Of a stretch of 64,000 nucleotides of DNA, positions 1-38,221 are shown in pieces. The position numbers and the translations under genes are program-made. Positions within the stretch are counted from its first letter, which is position 1; each line of letters starts with the position of its first letter. The DNA lies in the NCBI GenBank assembly GCA_963779845.1, contig CAVZZV010000005.1:879427-943426 (forward strand), in the 5' to 3' direction. The notes under the pieces are model-generated. The model was not told the DNA's origin, did no database searches, and saw only the letters and a list, made by a program, of their open reading frames with translations. The DNA comes from an uncultured Bacteroidales bacterium. GTDB taxonomy: Bacteria; Bacteroidota; Bacteroidia; Bacteroidales; GCA-2748055.

Positions 1-631
1 CAAAGAAAGGTTTATCATGTGACTGTCCCAAATAATCTATTATCTTCTGGGAGTTTACAACATCCGGAAAATCCGTATCCGGGGCGGTCCATGCTTCAAA
101 ATTTTGCCATTTTTGTTGAAGGTTTAAAGGAAGGGTCTGGTTTTTTATAAAAGGGCCATAACCTCCATCAATATTGGTCATATCGTCCCAACATCTGGTC
201 ATCACATCTGGCGTAGGTTTTGTGTGAAAAATCTTACCCGAACAAATTGTTGTATAGCCATTGTCGCGGAAATGCTGTGGCATCATAATGCTGTTGTTGA
301 CTATGGGGAAGTTTGAAATTTCATCTTCGTTAGTGTACACCCCCGAAATATATGGCTGAATACCAGTGAGCAAAGCTGTTCGAGAGGGATTACAGAGTGG
401 CACTGCTGTGTATGCATTTGTAAAAGTGACACCCCTGGCGGCTAATTTATCAAGATTTGGAGTTAAAACCTGATTGTTCCCGCCTAAATAACTTGTCCAA
501 TCGGCCATATCATCCATTATAATAATCAGGACATTGGCTTTTGAGTTAAGCTCACTATTGTTTTGACCTTGAAGCGATCCCACAGTCAGGAAAATGCCAA
601 TACCCAACATAAATATTTTCCCATTAATCAT
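1..631 (-). CDS. S1-family sulfatase, 5' part only (gene continues past the left window edge)
   Basis: Absent from the ORF track because there is no stop in the window. My minus-strand translation from the ATG at 629-631 gives MINGKIFMLGIGIFLTVGSLQG (signal peptide) ... NVLIIIMDDMADW ... NAYTAVPLCNPSRTALLTG. That is the metal-binding DD box plus the C-x-P-x-R formylglycine motif. Confidence 0.85.
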   Translation of the reverse strand, partial: MINGKIFMLGIGIFLTVGSLQGQNNSELNSKANVLIIIMDDMADWTSYLGGNNQVLTPNLDKLAARGVTFTNAYTAVPLCNPSRTALLTGIQPYISGVYTNEDEISNFPIVNNSIMMPQHFRDNGYTTICSGKIFHTKPTPDVMTRCWDDMTNIDGGYGPFIKNQTLPLNLQQKWQNFEAWTAPDTDFPDVVNSQKIIDYLGQSHDKPFF

Positions 632-1087: not shown

Positions 1088-1981
1088 CTACTTTTTAATA
1101 AATTTATGAAAAGACTTCTTGCCGGATTTTTCTAATGAAATAAGGTAAATTCCACTCTTTAATGCAGAAATATCTAACCTGACGGCATTCACTCCACCTG
1201 AAATCAGTTTTTTCCCTTCAATATTATAAATATCAACAAAATAATCATGTGCAGATGTTTGAATCTGAATATAATTTTCAACAGGATTTGGAGAAATAAT
1301 AAAATCACCCTCTATCGCGGGGTTCTTAATACCAACAGCATTATATTCTTCAACATCAACTCTGAAAAGGTGATTGTTTTTATCTGAACCGGAAAGACGT
1401 AATTTAATTGGAACAGCAGAATTAACAGAATAACTAAGTACTTCATCTAACGAGGTAGATAAATAAACACTAGCATTAGCCAATGGGAAGGAATAAATGA
1501 TGGACCATGTTTCTAATTCAGAATCCCATTTCTCCAAATCAATTGTTGATGCGACATTAGGATTTCCATTTTTTACGTGAATAGTCATTTCCCCGGCACT
1601 TGCTATTTCCGGAAACTCCATACTTGTTGTTCCATTATTTTTGAATCTAATCGCAATAGCCAACCCATTATTGTCATCATGTACAATTCCTTTTGTACTA
1701 AATACAGCACATACGTTCGTTGGATTCGTGGATTCGTTTAATCCATCAAAAGCGACAACAGGAGAATTTGTTAATACGTACTTACCAAAACAGGTTATTG
1801 GCGTTAAAAAATTGAAAACACTGCCAGCTGATGGTTTAAGGTAAGTGGCATCCTGGGCTAAAAATTCTGCATCCCATTCGGCGCTTGAAAAGTCTTCCGA
1901 AATAAGCAATTGCTGAGCTTTAATTGATGAAAATAAAGTTGCAAAAAGCATAATTGTTAAAAGTAAAGTTTTTGTTTTCAT
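1088..1981 (-). CDS. Secreted protein of unknown function with T9SS C-terminal sorting domain
   Basis: ATG at 1979-1981. Signal peptide MKTKTLLLTIMLFATLFSSIKAQ. The last ~70 aa (ISPNPVENYIQIQ...IYNIEGKKLI...LKSGIYLISLEKSGKKSFHKFIKK) fit the T9SS type-A CTD pattern. The central ~190-aa module recurs twice in the 10744-13092 protein. Confidence 0.75.
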   Translation of the reverse strand: MKTKTLLLTIMLFATLFSSIKAQQLLISEDFSSAEWDAEFLAQDATYLKPSAGSVFNFLTPITCFGKYVLTNSPVVAFDGLNESTNPTNVCAVFSTKGIVHDDNNGLAIAIRFKNNGTTSMEFPEIASAGEMTIHVKNGNPNVASTIDLEKWDSELETWSIIYSFPLANASVYLSTSLDEVLSYSVNSAVPIKLRLSGSDKNNHLFRVDVEEYNAVGIKNPAIEGDFIISPNPVENYIQIQTSAHDYFVDIYNIEGKKLISGGVNAVRLDISALKSGIYLISLEKSGKKSFHKFIKK

Positions 1982-8592: not shown

Positions 8593-10551
8593 TTAATCCA
8601 CCATGAATTGAAGATCTGAAATACTTCCCTTGAAATAATTTTCAGCTTCGTATTCGCCTATCAACCTTCTGAAATCTGTCCCGATACTCATTGGATCGTC
8701 AGGTGGAATGGGAAGGGATTCTCCAATATTTTCAGACCCGATTAATTGTCCATTAACATAAAGCTTCATATCTCCGTTTTTAAGCAAAATGGCTTTAAAG
8801 CTGAATTGTGAAGGAACAGGATTTGGCGTTTTCAAAGTGGTCAGCACACCATATTTCCGCGTACTATAGTATAAATTCCCCTCTTTTAAGTAAACTGACA
8901 GACCAAATACTTCTTCGCCATGGGCGATAATCACTCCATCTTTACAATCGCTCTCAACCGAGGCACTCATTTCAACCGATTTTGAGGTTACATCCGGAAT
9001 GTATAGATGTAATAATTTCAGAAAATTGCGCTTTCCGTTGAACACAAGTTTTCCATCAGCTGTTTTGGTTACTCCGTAATTTATCCAGGGTACAAGCTTC
9101 CCATTTATATCGAGCTTAATTTCAGGCCCGTAAGGATCGGGAAATGCCGGTTGAGGCTTACGGTCCTTGATATGCCCGCTTGCTTTAAGATTTAGGCCAG
9201 CGCGCCAATTAATCAAATCGCTGTGTAGCTCCTTTTCCTTTTCTGCCATTCCGGCTGATAAATCATTGCTCTCACCAATATCCTTGGAAAGATCAAAAAG
9301 GGATGTCTTTTTGGATGTATAATCTTCGACCAGTTTGAAATCACCTTTTCTGATTGCCCCAGCGCTAAATCCTCCCAGAAAATGTGGAGCTTCAAGTGGA
9401 TAATGCCAAACCAATGCTTCGTGAATTTTGATGTCACTTTTTGGATTTTTCCACAAAGAAAGCATCGAATTACCATCCTGAACCTGAGCCTTGGTAACAT
9501 CGTATCCCACCAATTCACAAAAAGTTGAAAAGAAGTCCATGTTTGAAACGACTTGATCTACCACCTGGCTGGTTTTTATCCCATTTTTCCACCAAACAAT
9601 AAGCGGCACTCTAAAACCTCCTTCATACACAGAACTTTTACCGGCCCTTAAAGGCGCATTGCTGGTTACGTTTGTTTCGCCGCCATTGTCTGACATAAAA
9701 ATGATGATGGTATTATCCAGCTGATCAATCTCTTCCAGTTTTTTCACAATCATTTCCACACCGTCGTCGATCGATTTTAGCTGTGCGGCAAGATGTACAT
9801 TGTTATGGTTTGAGATTGGAGAGAGACCGGCATCTTCTTTTTTAGAAAAATGCTCTACATATTCCTGTTTTCCATTGAGATTGGTATGGACTGAATAATG
9901 GCTTTTATAGAGGAAAAATGGTTTTCCCGTATTTTGGGGATTGTTCCGTTCAATAAACTCGACTGCTTCAAGGTTTTCCCGGTCTGTAAGATGTTCTACC
10001 GGGAATATTTTCTGTTCAACTTCCTGGTTGAAATGGTATGGGTAAAAATAACTTCCTCCTGAAATCCCTCTCTTTTCAGTTAAAATAACTTCATTAAAAC
10101 CATGTTTATCAGGTCCTGATTCTTTTGCTCCATTTTTTGCGTACCCCGACAAATGCCATTTCCCAATCATCCCGGTTTGGTAGCCCTCTGCTTTAAAGAC
10201 ATCCGCAATTGTTGTTAAATCTTCCGATAAATGTTTGTCTTCGTGGGGTCTAAGATAATCGGTTATTCCAATTCTGGCAGGGTGTTGACCGGTCATTAAA
10301 CTGGCTCTAAAAGGGGAACACACAGGTGCGGAGGCATATGCGTTGGTAAATCGCAATCCGGTGGCTGCCAGCTTATCAATGTTTGGTGTTTCATTAAAAT
10401 GATTTCCGAAACAGTTTAATTCAGAGTAACCCAGATCATCTGCTAAAATGAATATTACATTGGGTTTGTTTTCGGAATCTTTGTGGGGAGTACATCCAAA
10501 TCCCAGAATCAATAAGATAATACCAATGACTATATAGACTATTTTTTTCAC
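8593..10551 (-). CDS. S1-family sulfatase fused to a C-terminal LamG/concanavalin-like domain
   Basis: 652 aa. The start codon is GTG (10549-10551) and there is no in-frame ATG alternative. Motifs ILADDLGYSELNCFG and VCSPFRASLMTGQHP. About 190 extra C-terminal residues (...KLVFNGKRNFLKL...MKLYVNGQLIG...YFKGSISDLQFMVD) look like a Laminin-G-type beta-sandwich. Confidence 0.88.
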   Translation of the reverse strand: MKKIVYIVIGIILLILGFGCTPHKDSENKPNVIFILADDLGYSELNCFGNHFNETPNIDKLAATGLRFTNAYASAPVCSPFRASLMTGQHPARIGITDYLRPHEDKHLSEDLTTIADVFKAEGYQTGMIGKWHLSGYAKNGAKESGPDKHGFNEVILTEKRGISGGSYFYPYHFNQEVEQKIFPVEHLTDRENLEAVEFIERNNPQNTGKPFFLYKSHYSVHTNLNGKQEYVEHFSKKEDAGLSPISNHNNVHLAAQLKSIDDGVEMIVKKLEEIDQLDNTIIIFMSDNGGETNVTSNAPLRAGKSSVYEGGFRVPLIVWWKNGIKTSQVVDQVVSNMDFFSTFCELVGYDVTKAQVQDGNSMLSLWKNPKSDIKIHEALVWHYPLEAPHFLGGFSAGAIRKGDFKLVEDYTSKKTSLFDLSKDIGESNDLSAGMAEKEKELHSDLINWRAGLNLKASGHIKDRKPQPAFPDPYGPEIKLDINGKLVPWINYGVTKTADGKLVFNGKRNFLKLLHLYIPDVTSKSVEMSASVESDCKDGVIIAHGEEVFGLSVYLKEGNLYYSTRKYGVLTTLKTPNPVPSQFSFKAILLKNGDMKLYVNGQLIGSENIGESLPIPPDDPMSIGTDFRRLIGEYEAENYFKGSISDLQFMVD

Positions 10552-10743
10552 AGGATTAATTTTTTATACGTTATTTTTTATCTGCTTTGTTAACTATTGT
10601 AATTTGGAAAGAACAACTATGGAGCATTTAAGGTACTTGATGTTCGGATTAGTTTTTTCACATTTCGTTTTTTACAAAAGAGCTTAGTGAAAAATCGGAA
10701 ACCATTGCAGTCCTTTATAGCTCTTTCAACAGTTTAAAAATCC

Positions 10744-13092
10744 TTAATTAAGGAATACTTTGCGTATGTCTGTGTTTGTGTGTATAATGAATAATCCGTT
10801 CCCCATACTTTCAGGAAGATAGGTTTCATGGTCAACAAACCGGTTAAAAACCATTCTGCCGGACAGATTATAGATCCTTATTATAGTTGAAGGACCCTGA
10901 AGGGTTAATTTTCTTCCAATAAGTTTAAAAGAGGGTTGAACTATAGGATTTACAGACGGAGATATATTAGTTGGGGTAATACCATTATAACTTCCAACAC
11001 TGATTCTGTAAAGATTGATATAACGACTACCGGCATTTCGCACTTGAAGTTTTATCGGTTCATTGGTATTCACATCATAATTGATTATTTCATCCCTCGA
11101 GGTTCTTAAAGCTCCATGTGGATGCAAGTTAAAGACATTGATGACAGTCCAATGGTCGTCTGTAAATTTCTCAAGTGCTAAGCTGGTGGAATTGTTAAGG
11201 TTTCCGTTTCGCACATGCAATGTAATTATCCCGGCATTAGGGAGTTCTGGTAATTCGATCAGTCCCGAAGCATTGTTGGTGAATCGAAATGCTACGGCAA
11301 GTCCATCGTTTTCGTGGGTTATATTTTCTACTGCAGCACAAGGTAGAACCGGTAAGGATTCTATTTCACCTGAAAGGTGGTATTTGAAAAAATAGGGATC
11401 TGTACTATTAAGATTAAAATAAGCATTTTTTCCTTCGACATCTGGTGTGTAATAGGCATTCGGATTAGGAGCATTTGGATTGATGCCTCCACCTGGATTC
11501 AAACGTTCCAATTCACTTTCCCAGGATTTTGAGGAGAAATCTTCTGAAATGAGGTCTGCTGGCTCGGGTTTGTATATTTCCGGTTCACCATCTTTAATAA
11601 AATCGACATTGGTGTAATAGTAATCCTGATCGATGTTTGTATTGTATTTATTTTGGTATGGCGAGTAAGTTTGGATACTGAATCGCTTGTTTTCAGGTTC
11701 TATATCCATTATTCGGATCATTCCATTACGAGAGTCCTGTGAGCCATCAACTCCACCTTGATAATTGGCCAGGAACTGATAGACGGTATTTCCGTTATCA
11801 CCTTTGCTAACACGATATCCATTCCCATCACTCAGTATATGTCCTGAAAATACGAAAAGACAATTTTTATGTTTTTTGACGCATTTTTCCCAGATATCGT
11901 CACCATTATTAGGGGTTTCTTCACCGGTTGTCCTCAATCCTTCTTGTGGAACGCCTGTGTTGAGTGTATTATTGGCTCTTAGATAGGAGTGAGTATTAAT
12001 TATTACATTGTGTTTTGGATGTGCACTAATAACCATGTTCGCCCAGTCTAATACTTTGTCCCGGGGAAGGTATTCAAGAGAAATTATTAAAAATTTATAA
12101 TCGCCGTATGCAAAGGTATGCCATGTATTGTCTACTGTATTGGGTTCGAAGGTCCCTCCAAACCATTCATTTCTGCTATACCGCGAGTAGGGAAGATAAG
12201 AGTTCATCAAATTGGTGTTTCTTGAGCTCCCATTCCTTCCCATATCATGATTTCCGGCACAGAAGGTAAAAGGGATTTTCCTGCCTTCAAATAGATTAAA
12301 AGCACCTGCAGCGATCTTCCATTGTGTATTGTCATTCAATTGAGTAATATCACCTTGCTGGAGAATGAATTTTACATCATCAGCAATACTATTTACCCAG
12401 GTCGTTATGTACCCGTAAATATGGTTTAATGTTTCCCGATTGGCATATGTTTGGGCATCAGGAATAATAATGAGTTTTAGTGGCTTTTCTTTTGGAATTT
12501 CAGCGTCATAAGCATCTACCCTGATTTGGTAGACATGAATGCCTATCGTGGCTCCTAAAATTCTTAATTTTACAGGTTTATTGATATTCACGAATTCTTC
12601 TACCTGCAATTCAAAGTTCTGATTCTGGTGAGGAGGAAGATAAATTGTGCGGATTGTCTCCCAATTCTCTCCATTTCTTCTTTGTAAATACATGGAAGTT
12701 TCACTTGTAGAACTTGCGTTTTTTGAGAAAACCGTGAATCGACCTACACTCGCCAATTCGGGCAATTCTATATAAGAGTCACTACTTGTTCCGAGTTTAA
12801 AAGCCCAACGTCTGTATTTATTGTTATCTTCGATATACATCGGCTGTGCTTTATAGCTGGTAGTTGCTTGAAACTTCCCCCATTGACCGCCGAATTTGAA
12901 ATCTTCTGCTACATAATTGTCAATAGGTATGAAAAAAGCACTACTATCGCTATTGAATGCCGGTGCCGGGAAAAGAGGTTTCCAGGTTGTTGAGTCCCTT
13001 GTAAAATCAATGTCCAACAAAGTTGCAGGGGTAGCAAACAGATTCAATGACAGAAAAATTCCGGCAAGTAAAAGGTATAGCAATTTTTTCAT
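10744..13092 (-). CDS. T9SS-sorted calcineurin-like metallophosphoesterase flanked by two copies of an unknown ~190-aa module
   Basis: The ATG at 13090-13092 gives MKKLLYLLLAGIFLSLNLFA (signal peptide). The central region carries LKLIIIPDAQTY, QQGDITQLND, CAGNHDMG, VIINTHSY and FSGHILSDG. This is the D..(GD)..GNHD..H..GH metallophosphoesterase motif series. The C-terminal ~65 aa (IRIYNLSGRMVF...GLFIIHTNTDIRKVFLN) are T9SS-CTD-like. Confidence 0.8.
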   Translation of the reverse strand: MKKLLYLLLAGIFLSLNLFATPATLLDIDFTRDSTTWKPLFPAPAFNSDSSAFFIPIDNYVAEDFKFGGQWGKFQATTSYKAQPMYIEDNNKYRRWAFKLGTSSDSYIELPELASVGRFTVFSKNASSTSETSMYLQRRNGENWETIRTIYLPPHQNQNFELQVEEFVNINKPVKLRILGATIGIHVYQIRVDAYDAEIPKEKPLKLIIIPDAQTYANRETLNHIYGYITTWVNSIADDVKFILQQGDITQLNDNTQWKIAAGAFNLFEGRKIPFTFCAGNHDMGRNGSSRNTNLMNSYLPYSRYSRNEWFGGTFEPNTVDNTWHTFAYGDYKFLIISLEYLPRDKVLDWANMVISAHPKHNVIINTHSYLRANNTLNTGVPQEGLRTTGEETPNNGDDIWEKCVKKHKNCLFVFSGHILSDGNGYRVSKGDNGNTVYQFLANYQGGVDGSQDSRNGMIRIMDIEPENKRFSIQTYSPYQNKYNTNIDQDYYYTNVDFIKDGEPEIYKPEPADLISEDFSSKSWESELERLNPGGGINPNAPNPNAYYTPDVEGKNAYFNLNSTDPYFFKYHLSGEIESLPVLPCAAVENITHENDGLAVAFRFTNNASGLIELPELPNAGIITLHVRNGNLNNSTSLALEKFTDDHWTVINVFNLHPHGALRTSRDEIINYDVNTNEPIKLQVRNAGSRYINLYRISVGSYNGITPTNISPSVNPIVQPSFKLIGRKLTLQGPSTIIRIYNLSGRMVFNRFVDHETYLPESMGNGLFIIHTNTDIRKVFLN

Positions 13093-13243
13093 TTTTATAA
13101 AATTTTTATGTTCAAATTTACAATAAAAATGTTCACCTGAAAAAATATTAATGACAGTGAAATGACACACGGGAGGGAGAGCAGACCGGTGAGTTTTAAA
13201 CCGTAATTAATATTTAATATTACTTTTTTCATAATTTTTATTG

Positions 13244-14293
13244 TTAGTCGTTATTTTCATTATTACCCATCGGATAGAGCTGTGGTGATTTTGTGGGTCC
13301 ATTCACTATCATTTTCCCTTCCCTGAAATTTACCCTATCAATGTACATTGCTCTGTCGCCACCAGGCTTATCGGGAAAAGTATGTGCATGATAAACTATA
13401 AATAGTTCTTTCCTATTAGGTGACCAGGCAAAACTGTTATGTCCGGGTCCGGAGACACCAATTGCCATATTAGCTTTCAAAATAGGATTTTCAGGAGCTT
13501 TAGTCCATGGTCCCAGGGGACTGTTAGCCGTTGCATAGCAAACGCAATATTCATGCGTATTAAAGCCATTTGCAGAGTAGGTCATATAATATGTCCCGTT
13601 GTGCTTAAAAACTAAGGGGCCTTCATTCCAAAGTCGGGTCCCATTGATATCTTCATAAGGTTGATCGGGTGTGATAACCAGTTTTGGTTCAGTAACAAAC
13701 TTCTTTAAATCGTCGCTCAATTGTACCGCAAATATCTGACTGGTATACCTTCCATTGATCATGTTTGTACTACAATCTCTCACAAAAAAAGTGTAGGCTT
13801 TATCTTCATCAATAAAAATAGTTGCGTCAATATGCGATAATTTATGCTCATACCAGGGCGACTGGTAATTTTTAAATGGACCCAAAGGATGATCGCTGAC
13901 AGCAAGGCAAAGTTTTAAAATATTGTCGGGTTCACCAGCGCTGTAAGTCATGTAGAACTTACCTTTGTACTGAACAACTTCAGGAGCCCAAAAGCGGTCA
14001 ATTCCCAAAATGCCAGGTGTTTCATTAGAAAGAGCCAGTCCATGTTTTTTCCAGTTCACCAAATTTGTTGAAGTCCATACAAAAAACCCCTTTTCTAAAC
14101 TGGTTTCAGATGTGCAGTACATGTAATATATTCCATTATGTGTCAGCACAAATGGGTCGCCGATCCCGGTAATATTTGACAACGGGTTAGTATAATATTT
14201 CTTTTTCTTTTCCTGTCCATATGAAATCTGTGCAATATTTACCAGGATTACCAGGAATATAATAAGTTGTTTTTGTCTTCCTCTATTTTTCAT
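13244..14293 (-). CDS. GH43-family glycoside hydrolase
   Basis: 349 aa with a signal peptide. Five-bladed-propeller GH43 hallmarks: GDPFVLTHNGIYYMYCT, FWAPEVVQYKGKFYMTYS, IDATIFIDED and NEGPLVFKHNGTYYMTYS. Confidence 0.88.
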   Translation of the reverse strand: MKNRGRQKQLIIFLVILVNIAQISYGQEKKKKYYTNPLSNITGIGDPFVLTHNGIYYMYCTSETSLEKGFFVWTSTNLVNWKKHGLALSNETPGILGIDRFWAPEVVQYKGKFYMTYSAGEPDNILKLCLAVSDHPLGPFKNYQSPWYEHKLSHIDATIFIDEDKAYTFFVRDCSTNMINGRYTSQIFAVQLSDDLKKFVTEPKLVITPDQPYEDINGTRLWNEGPLVFKHNGTYYMTYSANGFNTHEYCVCYATANSPLGPWTKAPENPILKANMAIGVSGPGHNSFAWSPNRKELFIVYHAHTFPDKPGGDRAMYIDRVNFREGKMIVNGPTKSPQLYPMGNNENND

Positions 14294-17937: not shown

Positions 17938-19545
17938 TCATAACACACTTTCAAGATTTTCCTTGAACCTCATCATAATTTTGGCCGGGTAAACCGTGCT
18001 GTTCAGCCACAGATCCACTGGATATTTTGTAAAATATGTCGGATAATCACCTTGGTTTTCCTGCTGGACCACAGTAAAAGTATTGGCAATGGATTTTGCT
18101 TTAGCCAGGAAAATTTCCTTTTTACTAGCAATATAAGCTTCCATATAGGTATCCAGCATGATTCCTGCTGCCCTTCCGACGGGCATCCAGTAAATATATT
18201 GTTCCTGGACCGACGGGGTGATCCAGTTTTCCGAACGTCCCCCTTTTTTATCATGAAAAGAAACAGGAACAGGCTTCTCCCAAATGATAAACTGGTCTTC
18301 CGAAAAACGGATCAATTCTTCAGCCAGCCGCTTGTTCTTTTTATTTCTGAAAAGGTAAACAGCCAGTTCGCAAGCCTGCTCCCGGCTGAGGTTTCGGTAT
18401 GGAGGACGGGGAACCACATCTTCGAATTGACCATGCCAATTCCAGGTTTTAACAGGATGATCCATGATCCAGTTAAAAGCCCGGGAAGTTGCTTTCTTCA
18501 GTCCTTTCACATCATAATCATTTCTTAACCTGTCGAAATAATTTATGATTGATGTTGGGATCACAATGTTTTCTGCCGTTGGCACACCGGTTTCATGATT
18601 GACAAACAGATACCAGCTCCCATTTTCAAGTTGCCTTTTCAGGTAAGTATCGGCAATCTGAACAGCAGCTTTAAGGTATCGTTCTTCTCCCTGATAATCG
18701 TACATGTCTAAAAACGCATTGCCGGCATCTACACCCATGATGCTGAAGTTATTGACCGGATTCAGATGCTGTTTTTTCGCATTTTCTGCATGTTCCCCAT
18801 AATAGGCGGGGACAAAAAATTCCCAAGGTGTTCCTTCCTTAAATCGAATGTCCAGCATGTAATCAGCAACAATGCGAGCAAGTTGAACCGAAGTCTCAGC
18901 TTCGCTTGTTCCCGGTTTAAGGCGTGCATAGGTGAGGGCACCTATCACCAGGGCGCTGTATATTTTTGCCGGATATCGATAATTGATATAGGTGGGATCG
19001 GGCACTTTGTGTGTAAACCAATAGGTCACATAATCTTTGTTCATCAACCGTTCCAACGCCAGCTCTGCACTTTGATCGTAAGGTAGAACTGCTTCATGGT
19101 AAATCCCGTTAAATGGAGCAGCCCGATAGAAGCTTTTCTCCCCGGTTGTTCCCAATGTATCACCGTTGCTGGAAATACTCACTACCTTCAGGCTATATTG
19201 TCCAACTGGCATCAATTCCCATACCGGGCTTAATGGTGCATACGGAACCCGATCTTCAAAATGGAATTTTTTTGAAGTGGCTTCAGAAACAATATCAAAA
19301 CTATATTTCACCGCTTGATCTATTTTCTTAAAATCGAAGGCAGGGGCATAAATAAACTGGCGGGCATACTCATTCCAGAAGGGCTTTTTTCCCGGTTTTC
19401 CGGGACGGATCGGAACAACGGATTCCTGCCACGCTGTTTTACCGAAACCGGTCAGAGATTCCGGTTGCGCAGCAACCGGATGAAATCCAAACCCTGCAAA
19501 GAATAATAAGATGTAAACGCTTGCTAAATGAACTGGTTTTTTCAT
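17938..19545 (-). CDS. Secreted protein of unknown function (N-terminal beta-rich part plus helical-repeat, alpha/alpha-toroid-like part)
   Basis: The ATG at 19543-19545 gives MKKPVHLASVYILLFFAGFGFHPVAAQ (signal peptide). I recognise no catalytic motif. The repeated helix-pair pattern (ARIVADYMLD, GNAFLDMYDYQGEERYLKAAVQIADTYLKRQLENGSWY, ACELAVYLFRNKKNKRLAEELI) is typical of (alpha/alpha)6 carbohydrate-active folds. Confidence 0.6.
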   Translation of the reverse strand: MKKPVHLASVYILLFFAGFGFHPVAAQPESLTGFGKTAWQESVVPIRPGKPGKKPFWNEYARQFIYAPAFDFKKIDQAVKYSFDIVSEATSKKFHFEDRVPYAPLSPVWELMPVGQYSLKVVSISSNGDTLGTTGEKSFYRAAPFNGIYHEAVLPYDQSAELALERLMNKDYVTYWFTHKVPDPTYINYRYPAKIYSALVIGALTYARLKPGTSEAETSVQLARIVADYMLDIRFKEGTPWEFFVPAYYGEHAENAKKQHLNPVNNFSIMGVDAGNAFLDMYDYQGEERYLKAAVQIADTYLKRQLENGSWYLFVNHETGVPTAENIVIPTSIINYFDRLRNDYDVKGLKKATSRAFNWIMDHPVKTWNWHGQFEDVVPRPPYRNLSREQACELAVYLFRNKKNKRLAEELIRFSEDQFIIWEKPVPVSFHDKKGGRSENWITPSVQEQYIYWMPVGRAAGIMLDTYMEAYIASKKEIFLAKAKSIANTFTVVQQENQGDYPTYFTKYPVDLWLNSTVYPAKIMMRFKENLESVL

Positions 19546-19588
19546 TCCTGTTTTTTTATTATTAATTCTAACAAATTTAACCATTCCC

Positions 19589-26762: not shown

Positions 26763-28253
26763 CTATTGGTACCCCGGATTCTGCTCCAAACTTCCGTTGG
26801 AGGCAGCAATTTCATTATTTGGGATAGGTAAAAGCACATGATAATCCTCTATATTCTCTCTCGGTATTGCTAAAATTGGAGAAGTAGAATTCCGGATTGT
26901 CTCCACAAATATTCCCCAACGAAGCAAATCATATCTACGATGACCCTCAAAACTTAATTCAGTCGCTCTTTCTTTTCTGATAGCAAGCCGAAAATCCTCC
27001 TTACTTAATCCGGAAAGGTTTGTTATTCCTGCACGTTCCCGAACCAAATTAATAAATTGATAAGCATTGGCCGGGCCATTCAATTCATTTTCAGCCTCTG
27101 CGCGCATTAAAAGCACATCAGCATATCGAACTACATATTGATTATTCGCACTATTAAAAGGAATTGGCAAAACACCGGATTCCGGATTATGATATTTGCC
27201 ACTTATAGGACCTGCTCCCGGTGTTGTAGTTGACACAAGCACCCATCCATTTACCGTAGTTACAAAACTTATTGCAAGCCTCTTGTCACCAGGTTCAAAC
27301 CAATCCCCAAAATCGGGAAGGGGCATTATGTTTTCAAAACCCCCGTAATGATTAGTGTTTCCTCCAATTCTTTTATCACGCGACCCGGTTTGTTGGGTAG
27401 TTGTATTTCCTCTTTCGTCAAAAGCAAATTGTACATCCCAAATATTTTCGTTTACCAATGCGCCATCTTTATCAGGAAATAATTGGTGCTCATTTTGCCA
27501 TCCAAACAATTTGTTATAATCAGCAATAAGGCCAAATTTTCCTGAATTAATTATGGCATCACATTGTTGAATAGCCAACGCCCATTTTTTTTCTGTTAAA
27601 TATGCTTGTGCCAGAATTCCTGCAGCAGTCCATTTGGTAACTCTCCCTTTTTCTGCATCACCATATGAGTCCGGTAAGTCAGGAAAAGCCTCAAGCAAAT
27701 CCTTTTCAATGAGCGCATAAACTTCAGTGACTGGTGAACGGGTTATACCTTCAAGTGCTCCTGCTCCATCCAGTACTTTATCAACAATAGGCACATCTCC
27801 ATATTTTCTAACAAGTCCAAAATAATAATAAGCACGCAAAACTTTTGCCTCAGCTACCAATCTTTTTTGAAGCGTTTTATCTATTTCTTCAATTAAAGGG
27901 ATATAGGCAATTGCCGTATTACATCTGGAAACGCCACCATAAGCTTCCTGCCATAATGAATTACAATCATCATTAAATCCATTGAGCCCAACAAAGTAGG
28001 TTAACGGCCGTTTGTTATGAAAACCCTGGAATGAGAAATCACTGGGTACAACCGAAACATAATACTCCCTTGGACTGGTGAATAATTTTGAATATGCAGC
28101 AGTAGTTGCAGCAATAGCATCTTTCTCAGTTTTCGGAAAATTCTCAGGTGATAAAAAACTTTGAGGATTTTCGGTAAGTATGTCTTCGCAAGAAGGTAAT
28201 ACAATGCTGGTTAGAAAACCAGCAATTATTAATATTTTAAATGAATTTTTCAT
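26763..28253 (-). CDS. SusD/RagB-family outer-membrane glycan-binding lipoprotein
   Basis: The ATG at 28251-28253 gives MKNSFKILIIAGFLTSIVLPSCED (lipoprotein box). The TPR-like SusD pattern is present (LRAYYYFGLVRKYGDVP, RYADVLLMRAEAENEL, ERATELSFEGHRRYDLLRW). It lies directly downstream of susC. Confidence 0.9.
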   Translation of the reverse strand: MKNSFKILIIAGFLTSIVLPSCEDILTENPQSFLSPENFPKTEKDAIAATTAAYSKLFTSPREYYVSVVPSDFSFQGFHNKRPLTYFVGLNGFNDDCNSLWQEAYGGVSRCNTAIAYIPLIEEIDKTLQKRLVAEAKVLRAYYYFGLVRKYGDVPIVDKVLDGAGALEGITRSPVTEVYALIEKDLLEAFPDLPDSYGDAEKGRVTKWTAAGILAQAYLTEKKWALAIQQCDAIINSGKFGLIADYNKLFGWQNEHQLFPDKDGALVNENIWDVQFAFDERGNTTTQQTGSRDKRIGGNTNHYGGFENIMPLPDFGDWFEPGDKRLAISFVTTVNGWVLVSTTTPGAGPISGKYHNPESGVLPIPFNSANNQYVVRYADVLLMRAEAENELNGPANAYQFINLVRERAGITNLSGLSKEDFRLAIRKERATELSFEGHRRYDLLRWGIFVETIRNSTSPILAIPRENIEDYHVLLPIPNNEIAASNGSLEQNPGYQ

Positions 28254-28272
28254 AATCAAAAATTTTAGTGTT

Positions 28273-28690
28273 TTAGAAATCAAGCTTTACTCCAACGGTA
28301 TAGGATTTTAAAGTTGGGTCCTGAGAATGATCATACCCTCTTTTGGTATTATCAATACCCCTGCTAATTTCAGGATCATACCCGCTATAGCTATCAAATA
28401 ATAACACATTATTTCCGGCAATGTAAAGCTGGACTGATTGTAACCAATTTATTTTTTGAATCGGAAGGTTATACGATAATCGAATATCCTGTAATCTTAA
28501 AAAAGAACCATCTTCGACAAAACCTGAATTTGATACATTCATTGGTCTTGTAAATCCATCTACCGATGGAATATTTGTAGAGGTATTATCAGGTGTCCAT
28601 CGGTTAACAAATTTTCTGTAAACGTTATTATCTAAAGCTTGCTCAAGTAAACGACCTGATTCATTATATATTTCGTTACCATACTACAAA
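28273..28690 (-). pseudogene. Detached 3' end of the SusC-like gene (out of frame with 28676-31588)
   Basis: The frame reads GNEIYNESGRLLEQALDNNVYRKFVNRWTPDNTSTNIP...SGFVEDGSFLRLQDIRLSYNLP...YTVGVKLDF*. These are the canonical last beta-strands of a SusC barrel, ending in F. Confidence 0.8.
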
Positions 28691-31588
28691 TGAGAAATAT
28701 ATATACAAATCAAATGCTTTGTATGTAAATCTATTACTCAGTCCACCAAAAAAATCAGGGTCAGCATACCCAATAATTTTACGATCCAGGGTTTCGCTAA
28801 TAACTTTATCACCATCTATATCTTTATACCTTTTACCTCCGGGAAATACTGCAAAACCTGTTAAACCCGATTCATCAATCTCTTCCTGGGTATTCCAGAT
28901 TCCCTCCATTTCCAATCCATAAAAAGTACCAATGGGCTCCCCTTCCTTAATTATACCAGATGCTCCACTCCAGGTAAAACTATTATTGAGTATATATCCT
29001 TCAGGTGCAATAATACTTACAATTTCATTTTTATTTGTAGAAATATTAAAATTGGTTATCCATCTAAAATCCCTACTATTAATATTTGTAGAAGTTAGGG
29101 AAAACTCGAAACCTTTGTTGGAAACTGTTCCGAAGTTAGTTAGTACAGATTCGAAACTAGTTAGCCACAATAGTGGGACATCAACCAGTAAATCCTTGGT
29201 TAATTTATCGTAGTAGTCAGCAGTGATTTGCAATCGATTATTAAAAAACCCCGCATCAATTCCAACATCAAACTGGGTTGTACTTTCCCATTTAAGATCA
29301 GGATTTCCCAAGGTATTGGCAGCAATTCCCGATACCAGGTGCTGATCCACACCAAAAATGTAATTATTGCCTCCCGGGGCTAATTTCGTTAAGGAAGCAC
29401 CTGGGTCAAGACCCGGGTTTCCTAATACCCCATAACTAGCTCTAAACTTTAAGTTGTCAAAAATGTTAAGGTTTTTAATAAATTCTTCATTTCCAGCTTT
29501 CCATGCAATTGCTGCAGAAGGAAAAAGTCCCCATTTATTATTGGCGGCAAATACAGATGCTCCGTCCATTCTTGCTGATACAGTTAAAAGATATTTATTG
29601 GATAATCCGTAGTTGGACCTGAAAATAAAGGATTCCAGACCACTATTCGTTAAATTCGAATTGGCATCAGACCTTTCTGCTGCTGCAGCTAAATTATTAA
29701 ACGTAAACGCATCTGATACAAAGCCTCTTGCCTGAACCAAATTAGATTTCGATTCTATGGTCTGTCTGGTATATCCAAATAATCCGCTAATGTTGTGTTC
29801 TCCAAATGTTTTAGAATAATTTAAAGTATTTTCAATAATCAGATCCAGGGTTTCGTTATTGTTTATGGTTGCTGTACCCTGATAATTTTGTTGATCATAT
29901 AAAGTTGAGGGGTCATACCTGTTCCGGGTACCATTTTGTAAATTTGCTCCAACATTCAACTTATATGTCAATCCATCAATAATTTCATATTCACCAAAAA
30001 TGGTTCCCAGAAGTTTATTAGTTGTGGTAATATCTATGGGTAATTCAGAGAGGGCAACCGGATTATCACTACTCAGTTCTGCTAATTGAATTTGTTGAGT
30101 ATAATTGCCCTCCTCGTCATAAACAGGTAACGTTGGATCCCAGCCTATCAAATTTTTTATCCCAATTCCAAATGAACCCGGAGTATAATTTCTTCTGCTA
30201 ACAATTAATGAATTCCCTAATTTAAGCTTATCAGATATCTTATGATCAGTATTTATTTGAAAGTTATAACGCTCAAGGCCGCTATTAATAGATATACCTT
30301 GCTGATCAAAATAGTTTCCCGACAGGAAATAGGTATGTTTATTATCCCCTCCTGATATGGATAAGTTATGGCTGGTCATGGGCACGTTTTCACGATACAC
30401 TTCCTTTGCCCAATTGGTACCTTCTCCATAAGAATCCGGATTTGGATACATCTCTGAACCCTTTGTTTCATTTTGAAAAGCGGCAAATTCACTTGCGTTC
30501 ATTACAGGGATATACCTGGAGGGAGACTGGAATGAAATATAAGAATCATAAGAAATTCTTGTTTTCCCTTCTTTTCCTCTTTTTGTGGTAATTAAAATTA
30601 CCCCGTTTGAACCTCTTGACCCATAAATTGCTGTTGCAGAGGCATCTTTCAATACTTCTATAGATTCAATGTTATTCATATTTACATCATTCAAACTAAA
30701 ACCTCCGATATATCCGTCAATAACATACAAGGGTTCATTATTAGCTGAGATTGAGTTACTACCCCTGATTCTGATTGAAGTTTGTGCACCTGGATCTGAA
30801 GAAGTTGGTATAGCCTGTAATCCAGCAATTTTCCCTTTTAATGCCTGATCCACGCGAAGTACATTAGTAGAATTTAACTCCTCCGTCTTGATTGATCCAA
30901 CGGATCCGGTTATATCACTTTTTCTAACTGTTCCATAACCAATAGCAACCACCTCATCTAATCCAATAGCATCGGCAACCAGTGAAACATCAATGGTGGT
31001 TTGATTGCCAACTGCTACTTCCTGCGTTGACATTCCCACAAACGAAAATACCAATGTGGCATTTTCAGGAACATCCTCGAAGGAGTACTTCCCCTCCATA
31101 TTGGTAACCGTACCATTGGAGGTTCCTTTAAGAACAATTGATACCCCTGGCAGCGGTTGGCCATATTCATCGGTAACGGTTCCGGAAATGGATTTTTGCT
31201 GGAGTTTACCTTCTGATTTTATATCACTGGCATCCATTATAACTACATACCGATCAATAACTTCGTATCGAACTTTTTCAGGAAGTGTATTATCCAGAAT
31301 TTCTTCCACTGTCTTATTCTTTACATCAAGAGTTACTTTCTGATTCGGATCGAGTTTTGAACTCGAGAAGGCAAATCTGAACTCTGTTTGATTTTCAATT
31401 TTCTGAAACATCTGCTGATAGGTTATTTCAGTGAATTTTAAAGTGAGTTTGGTACTCTGTGAGTAAATACTCGCAGAAACCATCACGGTTGGGAACAATA
31501 AAATGAAAGTAGTTAGTTTCATAATTTTTACAATTCTTCGAAACAGAGAACGCTCATCCCCTGTTAGGAAAGGGTTTCTTTTTTTCAT
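28676..31588 (-). CDS. SusC/RagA-family TonB-dependent transducer (STN domain), interrupted by one frameshift near the 3' end
   Basis: The ATG at 31586-31588 gives MKKRNPFLTGDERSLF. An STN signalling domain follows (LKFTEITYQQMFQKIENQTEFRFAF...VRYEVIDRYVVIM). Then come a CarboxypepD_reg-like region (ISGTVTDEYGQPLPGVSIVL), the TonB box/plug (DEVVAIGYGT) and the barrel. The frame stops at ...DLYIYFSFVVW*, where paralogs read ...GVYGN. Confidence 0.88.
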   Translation of the reverse strand: MKKRNPFLTGDERSLFRRIVKIMKLTTFILLFPTVMVSASIYSQSTKLTLKFTEITYQQMFQKIENQTEFRFAFSSSKLDPNQKVTLDVKNKTVEEILDNTLPEKVRYEVIDRYVVIMDASDIKSEGKLQQKSISGTVTDEYGQPLPGVSIVLKGTSNGTVTNMEGKYSFEDVPENATLVFSFVGMSTQEVAVGNQTTIDVSLVADAIGLDEVVAIGYGTVRKSDITGSVGSIKTEELNSTNVLRVDQALKGKIAGLQAIPTSSDPGAQTSIRIRGSNSISANNEPLYVIDGYIGGFSLNDVNMNNIESIEVLKDASATAIYGSRGSNGVILITTKRGKEGKTRISYDSYISFQSPSRYIPVMNASEFAAFQNETKGSEMYPNPDSYGEGTNWAKEVYRENVPMTSHNLSISGGDNKHTYFLSGNYFDQQGISINSGLERYNFQINTDHKISDKLKLGNSLIVSRRNYTPGSFGIGIKNLIGWDPTLPVYDEEGNYTQQIQLAELSSDNPVALSELPIDITTTNKLLGTIFGEYEIIDGLTYKLNVGANLQNGTRNRYDPSTLYDQQNYQGTATINNNETLDLIIENTLNYSKTFGEHNISGLFGYTRQTIESKSNLVQARGFVSDAFTFNNLAAAAERSDANSNLTNSGLESFIFRSNYGLSNKYLLTVSARMDGASVFAANNKWGLFPSAAIAWKAGNEEFIKNLNIFDNLKFRASYGVLGNPGLDPGASLTKLAPGGNNYIFGVDQHLVSGIAANTLGNPDLKWESTTQFDVGIDAGFFNNRLQITADYYDKLTKDLLVDVPLLWLTSFESVLTNFGTVSNKGFEFSLTSTNINSRDFRWITNFNISTNKNEIVSIIAPEGYILNNSFTWSGASGIIKEGEPIGTFYGLEMEGIWNTQEEIDESGLTGFAVFPGGKRYKDIDGDKVISETLDRKIIGYADPDFFGGLSNRFTYKAFDLYIYFSFVVW

Positions 31589-31617
31589 AAATTTGCATGT
31601 TTTAGTTAATAAAATTG
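30940..31617. repeat. Dispersed repeat: susC leader plus STN/N-terminal extension (partner 40990-41683)
   Basis: Near-colinear nucleotide similarity by eye (about 85-90 percent). It runs from the DEVVAIGYGT-encoding box to 29 nt upstream of the susC ATG. Confidence 0.8.
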
Positions 31618-31679
31618 ATTCAATTTTCCGGGCATCGTCGGTTGCAACGACTTTGCCCGTTTTTATTTTCATTCATCCT

Positions 31680-36718: not shown

Positions 36719-38214
36719 CTATTGATATCCATCATTTTGAACTAAATTTTCATTAGCATCAATTTCAGGTTGTGGAATAGGAAATAAACGGTGGAAGGGT
36801 CTGGCCAGGCTTTTCCCTCTATCCAAAGCATTTTGGATGAACCTGTCGTGTCTAATTAAATCCGGCCTTCTTTTTCCTTCACTGTAAAACTCCCAAGCTC
36901 TTTCATCCAGTATTTTATCTATAAAAGTAGCCTGATCCGGAATATCAGTAAGAGTATAATCTTCTAGTCCCGCTCTATTTCTTACCTCATTTAATAAATC
37001 TAAAGCCTCTTGAGAGACAGTACCAGTGGACATTACCAATCCTTCTGATCGGGTTAACAATATTTGGGAATACCTGATATAGGGTACATCCTGACCTCCG
37101 ATTAGTGGATCTGCCGTATCCTCATCAATAGGGTACTTAAAACTCCTTGGATGATTATATTTATCACCTGTTGGTCCTTCGTTTGGATCAAGTAAGTTTA
37201 CAAAAACCCCTTTACTTGAAATATACTCTGTAAGAATCAAATCAGCTCTTTTATCGTTTGCATCAAAGGTGTGGTAAAATGCATCCTGAATAGTTGACTG
37301 GGTTGCAGCATTTACTACACTGGTAGGATAATCTCCCGGAAGCACATTTCGGGTCCAGTTAGATTCCAACTGGTTCAACGTCTATGTTAGGGAAAACATA
37401 AATCATTTCATTATTACCTTCATTATCCAATGCAAAAATATCCGCATAATTAGGCAATAATTGGTAAACCCCTAAATCAATTACTTCTTGAGCTGTTTGT
37501 GCGGCATCACGCCCATTTTTTTGCATTTAACTGAAACTGGGCCAACACGCCTAAAGCCGAACCACGAGTTGCTCTGCCAAATTCAGTTTGCCGGTACTGT
37601 TGTCGGCAGTAACAGGAGCAGCTGCTGTAAGTTCTGAAATCACGAAATCTTCAATCTCCTGAGTTGAGGCACGTTCCGGAAAAAGTTCATTTGTATTCTC
37701 AGTAATCAAAGGAACTCCTCCAAACCAGTCATAAAGAAAATTATAAGCAGTTGCCCTAAGAAATTTAGCTTCCCCCAGATATCTATCTTTAAATGTCCTG
37801 ACTTAATAATGGATGATCTGGAATCAGCCGTCACCAATATATTTGCATCCCTTATAGCCCTATAGTTTTTACGCCAATAATCCTGGATAACAGCAGTCCA
37901 TGCCCAGGATCAAAACTAAAATCCTGATACTTTCTTAGTGTATTATTATAATAAGATCCAATATAATCTTCAAATACATCTGTCGTGCATTCATTTAAAG
38001 CGATATAGTCGGCGGCACCTCCCCATCCATTTAATTGACCATTGGCATAAGCTGAAGCTAAAAGTGCTTCAATACCTTCTTGTGTATCCAAGAAAGCGTC
38101 CCGAAAATTCAGATTTTGGTTCAATTTCTAACGGTTTTTCACAGCTCGATAGTAAAAAGAGCTAATAAACCTAATGGCAAATACTGAATATCTATTTAAT
38201 AATTTCATTTTCAT
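36719..38214 (-). pseudogene. Decayed SusD-family gene (multiple frameshifts and stops)
   Basis: The start MKMKLLNRYSVFAI (ATG 38212-38214) runs into a stop after 28 codons. Fragments at 37852-38124 (EALLASAYANGQLNGW...) and 36719-37378 (...RYSQILLTRSEGL...WEFYSEGKRRPDLIRHDRF...FPIPQPEIDANENLVQNDGYQ*) lie in different frames. Their closest paralog is 54663-56132. Confidence 0.85.
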
Positions 38215-38221
38215 TTTAGTT

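Follow-up and report, generated by a model that had tools for sequence, protein, structure and literature searches.

A secreted modular metallophosphoesterase, a candidate glycan-directed phosphoesterase, in a sulfatase-rich locus of an uncultured Bacteroidales bacterium

We analyzed a 64,000-nucleotide stretch of an uncultured Bacteroidales genome (assembly GCA_963779845.1, contig CAVZZV010000005.1, positions 879,427 to 943,426 of the forward strand; hereafter the window) and, within it, a minus-strand gene that encodes a secreted modular metallophosphoesterase (MPE), referred to below as the target. The target is a member of the calcineurin-like metallophosphoesterase superfamily. Judged from its sequence, the best explanation is that it is an active, exported metallohydrolase that would work on the polysaccharide addressed by its locus. 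The glycan-directed role is well supported by context, because the protein carries carbohydrate-binding-type modules, shares a cassette with an S1 sulfatase, has paralogs in polysaccharide utilisation loci (PULs), and has homologs with glycan-related neighbors and fusion partners. We infer the chemistry, which may be hydrolysis of a phosphate mono- or diester or of another anionic ester. The more specific proposal is that the target sits at the surface or outside the cell and acts as a glycan-directed phospho(di)esterase, taking off a phosphate-linked decoration; in our judgment it has about an even chance of being correct.

The original prediction, which was made from the letters of the window, had proposed an open reading frame (ORF) at 10744..13092 with this general build, and we find that the ORF is real and its domains are as described. 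The start is the ATG at 13092 (MKKLLYLLL...), and the N-termini of homologs align with the same start. An upstream GTG at 13170 would lengthen the frame; it is an unlikely start, since translation from the ATG begins with a typical signal peptide and the homolog N-termini agree with that start. An AlphaFold2 model built from a 73-sequence alignment (mean predicted local distance difference test, pLDDT, 84.8; predicted template modeling score, pTM, 0.74) resolves five parts, namely a signal helix, a beta module (residues 24–193), the catalytic domain (about 200–512), a second beta module (515–712), and a seven-strand tail (721–781). The parts map to the window as follows:

10744..13092, minus strand: whole ORF, secreted modular MPE, 782 aa plus stop
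13030..13092, minus strand: Sec-type signal peptide, residues 1–21, MKKLLYLLLAGIFLSLNLFAT, read directly from the sequence without a predictor
12514..13023, minus strand: N-terminal beta-jelly-roll module, carbohydrate-binding-module-like, residues 24–193
11557..12495, minus strand: metallophosphoesterase catalytic domain, residues 200–512 (PF00149 and structural Z of 20–22)
10957..11550, minus strand: C-terminal copy of the module, residues 515–712, with a low-confidence inserted loop, assigned by homology to the N-terminal copy
10747..10941, minus strand: C-terminal beta-sandwich tail, residues 718–782 (about 65 aa), probably a divergent type-A type IX secretion system (T9SS) sorting domain

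Metallophos (PF00149) is the only Pfam family that matches the target, at 25.8 bits against a cut-off of 21.5 (E = 1.7e-5, residues 219–419), which is a small margin. Pfam searches with the isolated N- and C-terminal parts returned nothing, and the sole NCBIfam match, at 12 bits, is meaningless and concerns no C-terminal sorting domain (CTD). Structural comparison gave a clearer signal: the domain is modeled at pLDDT above 90 over most of residues 200–500, and residues 202–500 of the model align to solved metallophosphoesterases at Z scores of 20.6–22.1 with 13–17% identity. The matches (2XMO, 2BQ8, 3D03, and 2NXF) are all tied within 1–2 Z units, so no single one can be singled out as a specific relative. 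The superfamily assignment had been proposed from a motif series (D-A-Q, GDITQ, GNHD, NTHS, GHIL), and it agrees with the Pfam match, with the structural comparison, and with the conservation of the catalytic and metal positions, which are kept in 255–258 of 258 related domains. All five motifs are located in the translation:

12451..12459, minus strand: motif I, D212-A-Q214 (family consensus P-D-T-Q); D in 258/258, Q in 257/258
12349..12354, minus strand: motif II, G247-D248 (GDITQ); G in 258/258, D in 257/258
12244..12255, minus strand: motif III, G280-N281-H282-D283; N in 256/258, H in 255/258, D in 255/258
11989..11991, minus strand: motif IV, His368 (NTHS); 258/258
11833..11844, minus strand: motif V, G417-H418-I-L420, with the second His of GHxH absent; H418 in 256/258

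These counts come from 258 related domains in 251 proteins taken from homology-search matches to the target, and since those proteins were chosen by their similarity to the query, the counts show constraint inside the family and nothing more. The family consensus reads L-P-D-T-Q-x-Y ... G-H-V-L. At position 420, where the second His of GHxH would stand, the commonest states are Leu (131), a gap (26), Thr (22), Ile (14), Pro (12), and Gly (10), and His is not among these six. The original prediction had remarked that the last motif is normally GHxH; the second His is indeed absent, but its loss is family-wide and not peculiar to this gene. PPP phosphatases are not known to have it either. Going by the aligned sequences, both the missing His and the D-x-Q of motif I are family signatures and not decay, and the D-x-Q is the more distinctive of the two changes. 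In the superfamily, the Asp of motif II is the metal-bridging residue, and the usual form of motif I is D-x-H, in place of which the target has D-A-Q. According to one study, the motif I consensus is written DX[H/X], with Gln permitted at the third position, and ADPRibase-Mn enzymes have D[V/I]Q as their first consensus region, with the carbonyl of Gln27 coordinating metal 1 in a docking model (PMC4334965). Because Gln in motif I is thus a known variant, D-A-Q does not exclude superfamily membership.

The module that flanks the catalytic domain, which the original prediction had called unknown, is real and duplicated. Its N- and C-terminal copies are homologous (30% identity over 107 aa, E = 2e-13). 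Folded alone, the N-terminal module reaches a pLDDT of 93.4, and its best structural match is 8X8H_A (Z 15.2, root-mean-square deviation (rmsd) 2.3, 136 of 144 residues aligned), followed by 8WC1_A (Z 14.0). Identity to these two structures is 11–12%, and both carry the PDB title “carbohydrate binding domain of a putative pectate lyase.” CBM36/35/6 and reelin follow at Z 10–11. In the model, the fold of the flanking module is of a carbohydrate-binding type.

The C-terminal module and the tail are also found together on other proteins. They match the C-terminus of the S1 sulfatase at the window's left edge (36% identity over 226 aa, E = 3e-41) and that of a sulfatase in the metagenome locus L017 (38% over 224 aa, E = 2e-43), which lies immediately downstream of an MPE homolog. 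The members of this set that fall at least partly within the window are the following:

1088..1981, minus strand: 297-aa protein with one module copy (40% identity, E = 2.5e-22) and a Pfam-positive T9SS CTD (Por_Secre_tail, 44.5 bits)
2..631, minus strand: N-terminal part of an S1 sulfatase (about 718–726 aa) cut by the left edge; the module and tail cassette is at its C-terminus, beyond the window

The presence of the same cassette on a sulfatase, a phosphoesterase, and a stand-alone protein argues that all three meet the same polymer outside the cell, and such three-domain cassette logic is a useful marker for spotting enzymes that act on one substrate. As a separate observation, the module occurs in a 282-aa protein elsewhere on the contig (G000:C5:1122191-1122679), so that it behaves as a mobile cassette found on the 297-aa CTD protein, the C-terminus of the approximately 718-aa S1 sulfatase, and the 282-aa protein. 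Most tails joined to the module fall short of the Por_Secre_tail cut-off, and this hints at a divergent CTD subtype that goes with it. The sulfatase directly downstream of the target was considered as an ortholog of those downstream of the homologs in L006 and L017 and rejected, the 23–24% identity being generic S1 similarity.

The tail is the weakest element of the architecture. It had been described as a T9SS CTD, and that description is favored by remote similarity, fold, and a host SprA, but the cut-off of the Pfam family is not reached. Por_Secre_tail (PF18962) gave no match in the target even at E ≤ 10, whether with the whole protein or with its last 84 or 218 residues, and the target is absent from the genome's 61 Por_Secre_tail matches. 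Seven homologs (P0003, P0005–P0008, P0010, and P0055), five of which share the target's full architecture, have sub-threshold matches of 16–24.5 bits against a cut-off of 27 (E = 3.5e-5 to 0.013). An hhalign comparison of the tail profile with six Pfam-positive CTDs returned a probability of 71% (E = 3.6e-5) over 43 columns in the right register, and residues 721–781 are modeled as a beta-sandwich of seven strands at pLDDT 86–93. The genome encodes SprA (SprA_N, 627.9 bits in a 2469-aa frame), and the 297-aa sister protein, which has the same module, carries its Pfam-positive CTD in the same position. The tail is likely a divergent type-A T9SS CTD.

The placement of the gene between a glycosidase and a sulfatase with short spacers was likewise borne out, with all three genes on the minus strand and spacers of 151 and 192 bp. 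Its immediate neighbors and the transporter pair of the locus are:

13244..14293, minus strand: upstream neighbor, GH43 (PF04616, 178.8 bits; spacer 151 bp)
8593..10551, minus strand: downstream neighbor, S1 sulfatase (PF00884, 209.4 bits) with a C-terminal Laminin_G_3 domain (PF13385, 34.5 bits; spacer 192 bp)
26763..31672, minus strand: SusD (26763..28283) and SusC (28676..31672) pair

With its SusC/SusD pair, co-directional GH43 and GH51-type genes, and many S1 sulfatases, the locus is a PUL. It holds more than a dozen S1 sulfatases in addition to GH43, GH51, and GH106, and the glycan that it targets seems to be of a sulfated, arabinose/rhamnose type. A promoter and terminator scan of 10300–13500 found 14 promoters against 11.1 ± 3.7 in shuffled sequence and 2 terminators against 2.6 ± 1.7; counts no higher than in the shuffles make it uninformative on operon structure. 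No RNA data were listed for the target gene, and a small fraction of its sequence words occurs in one DNA run.

The same genome contains two further MPE paralogs, with 48% and 29% identity to the target, and all three members lie in PULs, that is, in sulfatase and glycosidase loci. Paralog 2 begins at the stop of an S1 sulfatase, with SusD, a BT_3987-like protein, GH127, and DUF4838 upstream, and paralog 3 is surrounded by four GH106 genes, sulfatases, and one SusD. Both paralogs have lipoprotein signal peptides. In the locus of paralog 2 (L004:10116-12808), the end of the S1 sulfatase and the start of the MPE share position 11102, which suggests translational coupling of the pair.

A search of 1.84 billion representatives with the catalytic domain retrieved 6678 clusters at E ≤ 1e-3, 4973 at E ≤ 1e-10, and 982 at E ≤ 1e-30. 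Within Bacteroidota the family is rare: among 301 sampled genomes, 3 have a match at E ≤ 1e-25, counting the one from which the window comes. In both of the other two holders, the MPE is flanked by glycosidases. The first (L015) has a stand-alone homolog in the order GH125, MPE, GH92, with spacers of 3–6 bp, and the second (L016) combines SusC, SusD, a LamG protein, two PF10091 genes, the MPE, an esterase, and GH3.

Seven homolog loci were found on genome contigs, and Pfam was run on four of them (L006, L007, L009, and L012); the two contigs that carry L007 and L010 also account for L008, L010, and L011, with the same ORF layouts, and these three were left out. Three of the four (L006, L007, and L009, all Bacteroidota) hold the closest relatives, at 58–69% identity. 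In each of them the MPE is accompanied by S1 sulfatases, by EEP-family phosphatases, and by some of PL8 (with a CTD), GH2, and GH43; L009 adds a second, tandem MPE and a NAGPA “phosphodiester glycosidase.” Viewed for their own sake, these closest-relative loci, which come from Paludibacter-type assemblies (L009:15630-16667, L009:16691-18910, L009:19126-21267, and L017:361-3977), gather two or three EEP proteins, tandem MPEs, PL8, sulfatases, and the NAGPA protein, which is 739 aa long. They resemble loci for a glycan that bears sulfate as well as phosphodiester decorations.

Of 595 candidate stretches in metagenomes, 404 code for relatives, and the 80 loci that were kept fall into 29 clusters at 70% identity or above. 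We scanned up to two genes on each side in one representative per cluster (94 proteins) and found a glycosidase, sulfatase, SusD, or binding-module (CBM-type) neighbor in 17 clusters. Recurrent partners were S1 sulfatases (seven clusters), PF10091 (six clusters), and the alpha-mannan enzymes GH38 and GH99. Nearly all of the 29 representatives are exported, and 16 have a lipobox-like cysteine, as read by eye from their N-termini without a predictor. The largest cluster (L054–L084, representative L056) accounts for 30 of the 80 loci, largely from human-gut assemblies, with the gene order SusD, DUF2264, MPE (a 324-aa lipoprotein), S1 sulfatase, and a GH88-type gene; a gut species thus has a family member, in what appears to be a sulfated uronic-acid glycan locus. 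Among homologs more generally, the domain is fused to catalytic domains of GH26 (seven proteins), GH105, and GH31 and to Laminin_G_3, F5/8-C, ricin, CBM4_9, PA14, DUF1080, dockerin, and cohesin domains. Some homologs stand alone at about 325 aa, without a binding module.

The “P-D-T-Q” MPEs are a distinct, large, and uncharacterised subfamily of secreted proteins or lipoproteins for which we found no solved structure. A PDB sequence search with the single target protein matched no chain, and the only match in one with the family profile covered 54 residues in lupin PPD1 (3ZK4, E = 4.9e-4). In a protein atlas, only unnamed Metallophos clusters lie near the target (0.90–0.91). No characterised family member was found in the literature searched, which did not cover subscription papers. 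An extracellular role on polysaccharide had been called unusual for this fold; that is true of the characterised enzymes, but the family is large and widely distributed (the 982 clusters at E ≤ 1e-30 noted above).

We propose the following mechanism. The Sec signal peptide and the divergent T9SS tail would carry the protein to the surface of the cell or beyond it, and the two carbohydrate-binding-type modules, as their fold and the sharing of the cassette suggest, may dock it on the polymer. By analogy with the superfamily, a two-metal centre would be formed by Asp212, Gln214, and Asp248 at site 1 and by Asp248, Asn281, His368, and His418 at site 2, with the His282-Asp283 pair as the putative acid or transition-state helper. 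This centre would hydrolyse a phosphate mono- or diester on the glycan and so clear an anionic decoration beyond the reach of the GH43, GH51, and GH106 glycosidases and the S1 sulfatases. More broadly, P-D-T-Q MPEs may serve a wide variety of glycan-degradation loci as accessory enzymes. With the metal and His-Asp set intact, P–O ester hydrolysis is favored, and the EEP and NAGPA enzymes in the loci of the closest relatives point to phosphate. Enzymes that take phosphate decorations off sugars have precedents in BT3783 of the yeast-mannan PULs and in PGAP5, Ted1, and Cdc1, all of which are compared with the target below. Yeast mannan carries mannosyl-phosphate. We take PF10091 to be the GH144-type beta-1,2-glucanase family. 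Osmoregulated periplasmic glucans (OPGs) of the beta-1,2 type carry phosphoglycerol, phosphoethanolamine, and succinate (PMC10514313). These decorations fit the sets of PF10091, MPE, esterase, and GH3, provided that this family assignment is right.

Several observations weigh against this proposal. The T9SS tail is under the family cut-off, the Pfam score of the catalytic domain is barely over its own, and the conservation counts have the family-internal scope given above. We know of no report of a phosphate ester on the arabinose/rhamnose-type sulfated glycans that the locus seems to target, though no search was aimed at this point. No other phosphate-related gene was found in the window; the genome's five EEP matches all lie outside it, and the genome has no NAGPA match. 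Bacteroidota pack many exported enzymes into PULs, so neighborhood alone is weak evidence. Beyond the 17 glycan-linked metagenome clusters, seven have neighbors unrelated to glycans, two are ambiguous, and three have no annotated neighbor. Lastly, an archaeal homolog with 33% identity (L012:8165-9187, a Hadarchaeota assembly) has as its neighbors not glycan genes but NucS, an XPD-type helicase, and an SMC/Rad50-like gene. It possibly represents a different functional branch. The original prediction, that a phosphate or phosphodiester substituent or another anionic ester is removed from the glycan, is accordingly supported by context in its glycan direction, and its chemistry we still infer.

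A first alternative is phosphorus scavenging, in which the target would be a broad extracellular phosphodiesterase or phosphatase acting on nucleic acids, nucleotides, or phospholipid head groups, supplying phosphate and not access to the glycan. The characterised enzymes nearest in fold (2XMO, GpdQ, purple acid phosphatases, and 2NXF) act on nucleotides, glycerophosphodiesters, and generic phosphate esters, and the seven metagenome clusters without glycan-related neighbors are consistent with such a role. Bacteroidota “Pus” loci, among them Flavobacterium johnsoniae pus1 with its calcineurin-like enzyme, are described as pairing SusCD-like transporters with phosphatases (bioRxiv 10.64898/2026.09.03.749221); for Riemerella anatipestifer, one table lists a metallophosphoesterase that is secreted by the T9SS and has phosphatase activity (PMC10202324). 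A scavenger would not explain the two carbohydrate-binding-type modules around the domain or the cassette in common with an S1 sulfatase of the locus, however, and the sulfatase/GH setting of all three paralogs, the fusions to GH26, GH105, and GH31, and the packing of some homologs between alpha-mannosidases with 3–6 bp spacers all speak against it. A scan of 37 window ORFs revealed neither a Pho-type regulator nor a phosphate transporter. We consider scavenging unlikely.

A second alternative keeps the glycan and changes the chemistry, to a sulfate ester or diester beyond the S1 sulfatases, a phosphonate ester, or a non-hydrolytic acid/base reaction on a sugar. S1 sulfatases are frequent immediate neighbors (of the target, of paralog 2, in L006, L007, and L009, and in 7 of the 29 metagenome clusters), the site-1 ligands are altered family-wide (Gln for His in motif I and no second His in motif V), and we know of no phosphate-bearing substrate of the locus. 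Chemistry other than that of phosphoesters is possible on this fold, the lasso-peptide epimerase MslH having been reported to have a calcineurin-like fold (PMC10406935). On the other hand, D-x-Q is described as supporting ordinary phosphoanhydride and phosphodiester hydrolysis in ADPRibase-Mn (PMC4334965), phosphate is also indicated by the EEP phosphatases and the phosphodiester glycosidase in the closest relatives' loci, the locus of the target already has more than a dozen S1 sulfatases, and the His-Asp pair typical of phosphoryl transfer is retained. We regard this alternative as improbable. A third, that the target is a non-catalytic surface glycan-binding protein with an inactive MPE scaffold, would suit the 25.8-bit Pfam score, the replacement of two canonical histidines, and an architecture dominated by binding-type modules, but it is very improbable, since the remaining catalytic and metal positions are kept in 255–258 of 258 domains, including stand-alone forms of about 325 aa without a binding module, a constraint that would not be expected of a dead enzyme.

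Glycan-directed phosphoester hydrolysis, to which we now return, would matter for several reasons. The biochemistry of PULs has been charted well for glycosidases, lyases, sulfatases, and carbohydrate esterases; for enzymes that strip phosphate-linked decorations, only a few cases are known, and these are of another fold (BT3783 and GlcNAc-PDase, an enzyme that acts on N-acetylglucosamine, GlcNAc). The subfamily described here recurs in alpha-mannan-type, PF10091-type, and sulfated-glycan loci, and glycosidases and binding modules occur as its fusion partners. Its novelty lies not in the fold or the general kind of function but in the motif signature, the modular architecture, and the ecological context. 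If the proposed function is correct, the family would constitute a new class of accessory enzymes for glycan degradation, would provide tools for glycan analysis, and would predict phosphate decorations on substrates for which none are documented. A bolder and doubtful extension is that P-D-T-Q MPEs form an unrecognised, widespread class for polysaccharide-bound phosphate, possibly phosphonate, esters; their occurrence in three sulfated-glycan loci of this genome would then imply that the target polysaccharides carry an overlooked phosphorus decoration. Polysaccharide-bound phosphonate esters have been reported in marine dissolved organic matter, and such a class would supply a missing step in releasing phosphorus from high-molecular-weight polysaccharide.

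Three other features of the window deserve mention. A 548-aa ORF without a Pfam family (17938-19584, minus strand) lies between a sulfatase and the GH51-type gene. Its protein-atlas neighbors, at 0.94–0.97, are unnamed clusters and clusters with GH127, ulvan-lyase-N, GH47, and GlcNAc-2-epimerase domains, which a minority to a majority of the members of those clusters carry; it may be an unclassified (alpha/alpha)6-type glycan enzyme. A 691-aa protein (52342-54417, minus strand) combines Laminin_G_3 with a Pfam-positive T9SS CTD, and its first approximately 430 residues match no Pfam family. At 36719-40992 on the minus strand, a SusC/SusD pair is apparently fragmented, as if a transporter pair had decayed between two PUL halves that are intact, with the following pieces:

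36719-37378, minus strand: SusD, C-terminal part
38860-39360, minus strand: TonB-barrel
39429-39950, minus strand: unassigned fragment
40213-40992, minus strand: Plug

Our literature search on metallophosphoesterase or calcineurin-like enzymes in PULs found nothing on the target's family, and we compared the target with several better known systems. ADPRibase-Mn (2NXF), which we take to be cytosolic with nucleotide substrates, has the same fold (Z 20.6, rmsd 3.1, 240 residues aligned). It also has Gln for His in motif I, its Gln27 being described as binding metal 1 in the docking model (PMC4334965). It differs in the motif itself (D[V/I]Q against D-A-Q in the target and D-T-Q in the target's family), in the 13% identity of the structural alignment, with no sequence match by either the single sequence or the family profile, and in lacking a signal peptide, binding modules, and a PUL context. 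Membership of the target in the ADPRibase-Mn family was rejected on these grounds of motif I and sequence, and because the structural match ties with unrelated families. Lmo2642 (2XMO), GpdQ (3D03), and the mammalian purple acid phosphatases (2BQ8 and 1QHW) are the best structural matches to residues 200–500, at Z 21–22 and 10–17% identity. Purple acid phosphatases have a tyrosine ligand in motif II, GDxxY. The target has GDITQ without a Tyr, and the family shows Asn 91, Asp 60, Gln 55, Glu 22, Gly 13, and His 11 at that position, so it was rejected as a member of this group.

The closest functional parallels are with enzymes that act on phosphorylated glycans. BT3783 of Bacteroides thetaiotaomicron (4C1R) resembles the proposed role in being a PUL-encoded, metal-dependent sugar phosphatase of a yeast-mannan PUL, tested on phosphorylated sugars and a phosphorylated high-mannose N-glycan; unlike the target, it is described with an EEP-type fold, overlaid on tyrosyl-DNA phosphodiesterase, and without flanking binding modules (PMC4978465). 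The EEP proteins in the loci of the closest relatives stand beside the MPE and not in its stead. GlcNAc-PDase is likewise a secreted bacterial enzyme, which strips phosphocholine or phosphoethanolamine from GlcNAc, but it is presented as an EEP-superfamily protein of Clostridia outside PULs (PMC10704324). PGAP5, Ted1, and Cdc1 bring the metallophosphatase superfamily to a phosphodiester-linked glycan decoration: removal of phosphoethanolamine from mannose of glycosylphosphatidylinositol is described for PGAP5 in vitro, and Ted1p and Cdc1p are linked to it genetically (PMC10704324). They are, unlike the target, membrane proteins of the eukaryotic secretory pathway, and the likeness is drawn at the superfamily level. 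Fjoh_4173 of F. johnsoniae pus1 is, like the target, an exported calcineurin-like enzyme beside a SusCD-like pair, and it is reported to be structurally like GIPC-PLC; it differs, on a comparison by description and not by sequence, in belonging to what is presented as a locus that serves phosphate acquisition on phospho(inositol)lipids and has neither sulfatases nor glycosidases (bioRxiv 10.64898/2026.09.03.749221). By analogy, the proposed function would be closest to that of BT3783 and GlcNAc-PDase, and the combination of fold and glycan-phosphodiester target closest to PGAP5/Ted1/Cdc1 and the GIPC-PLC-type pus1 enzyme. The target would work like a PUL accessory “decoration remover.”

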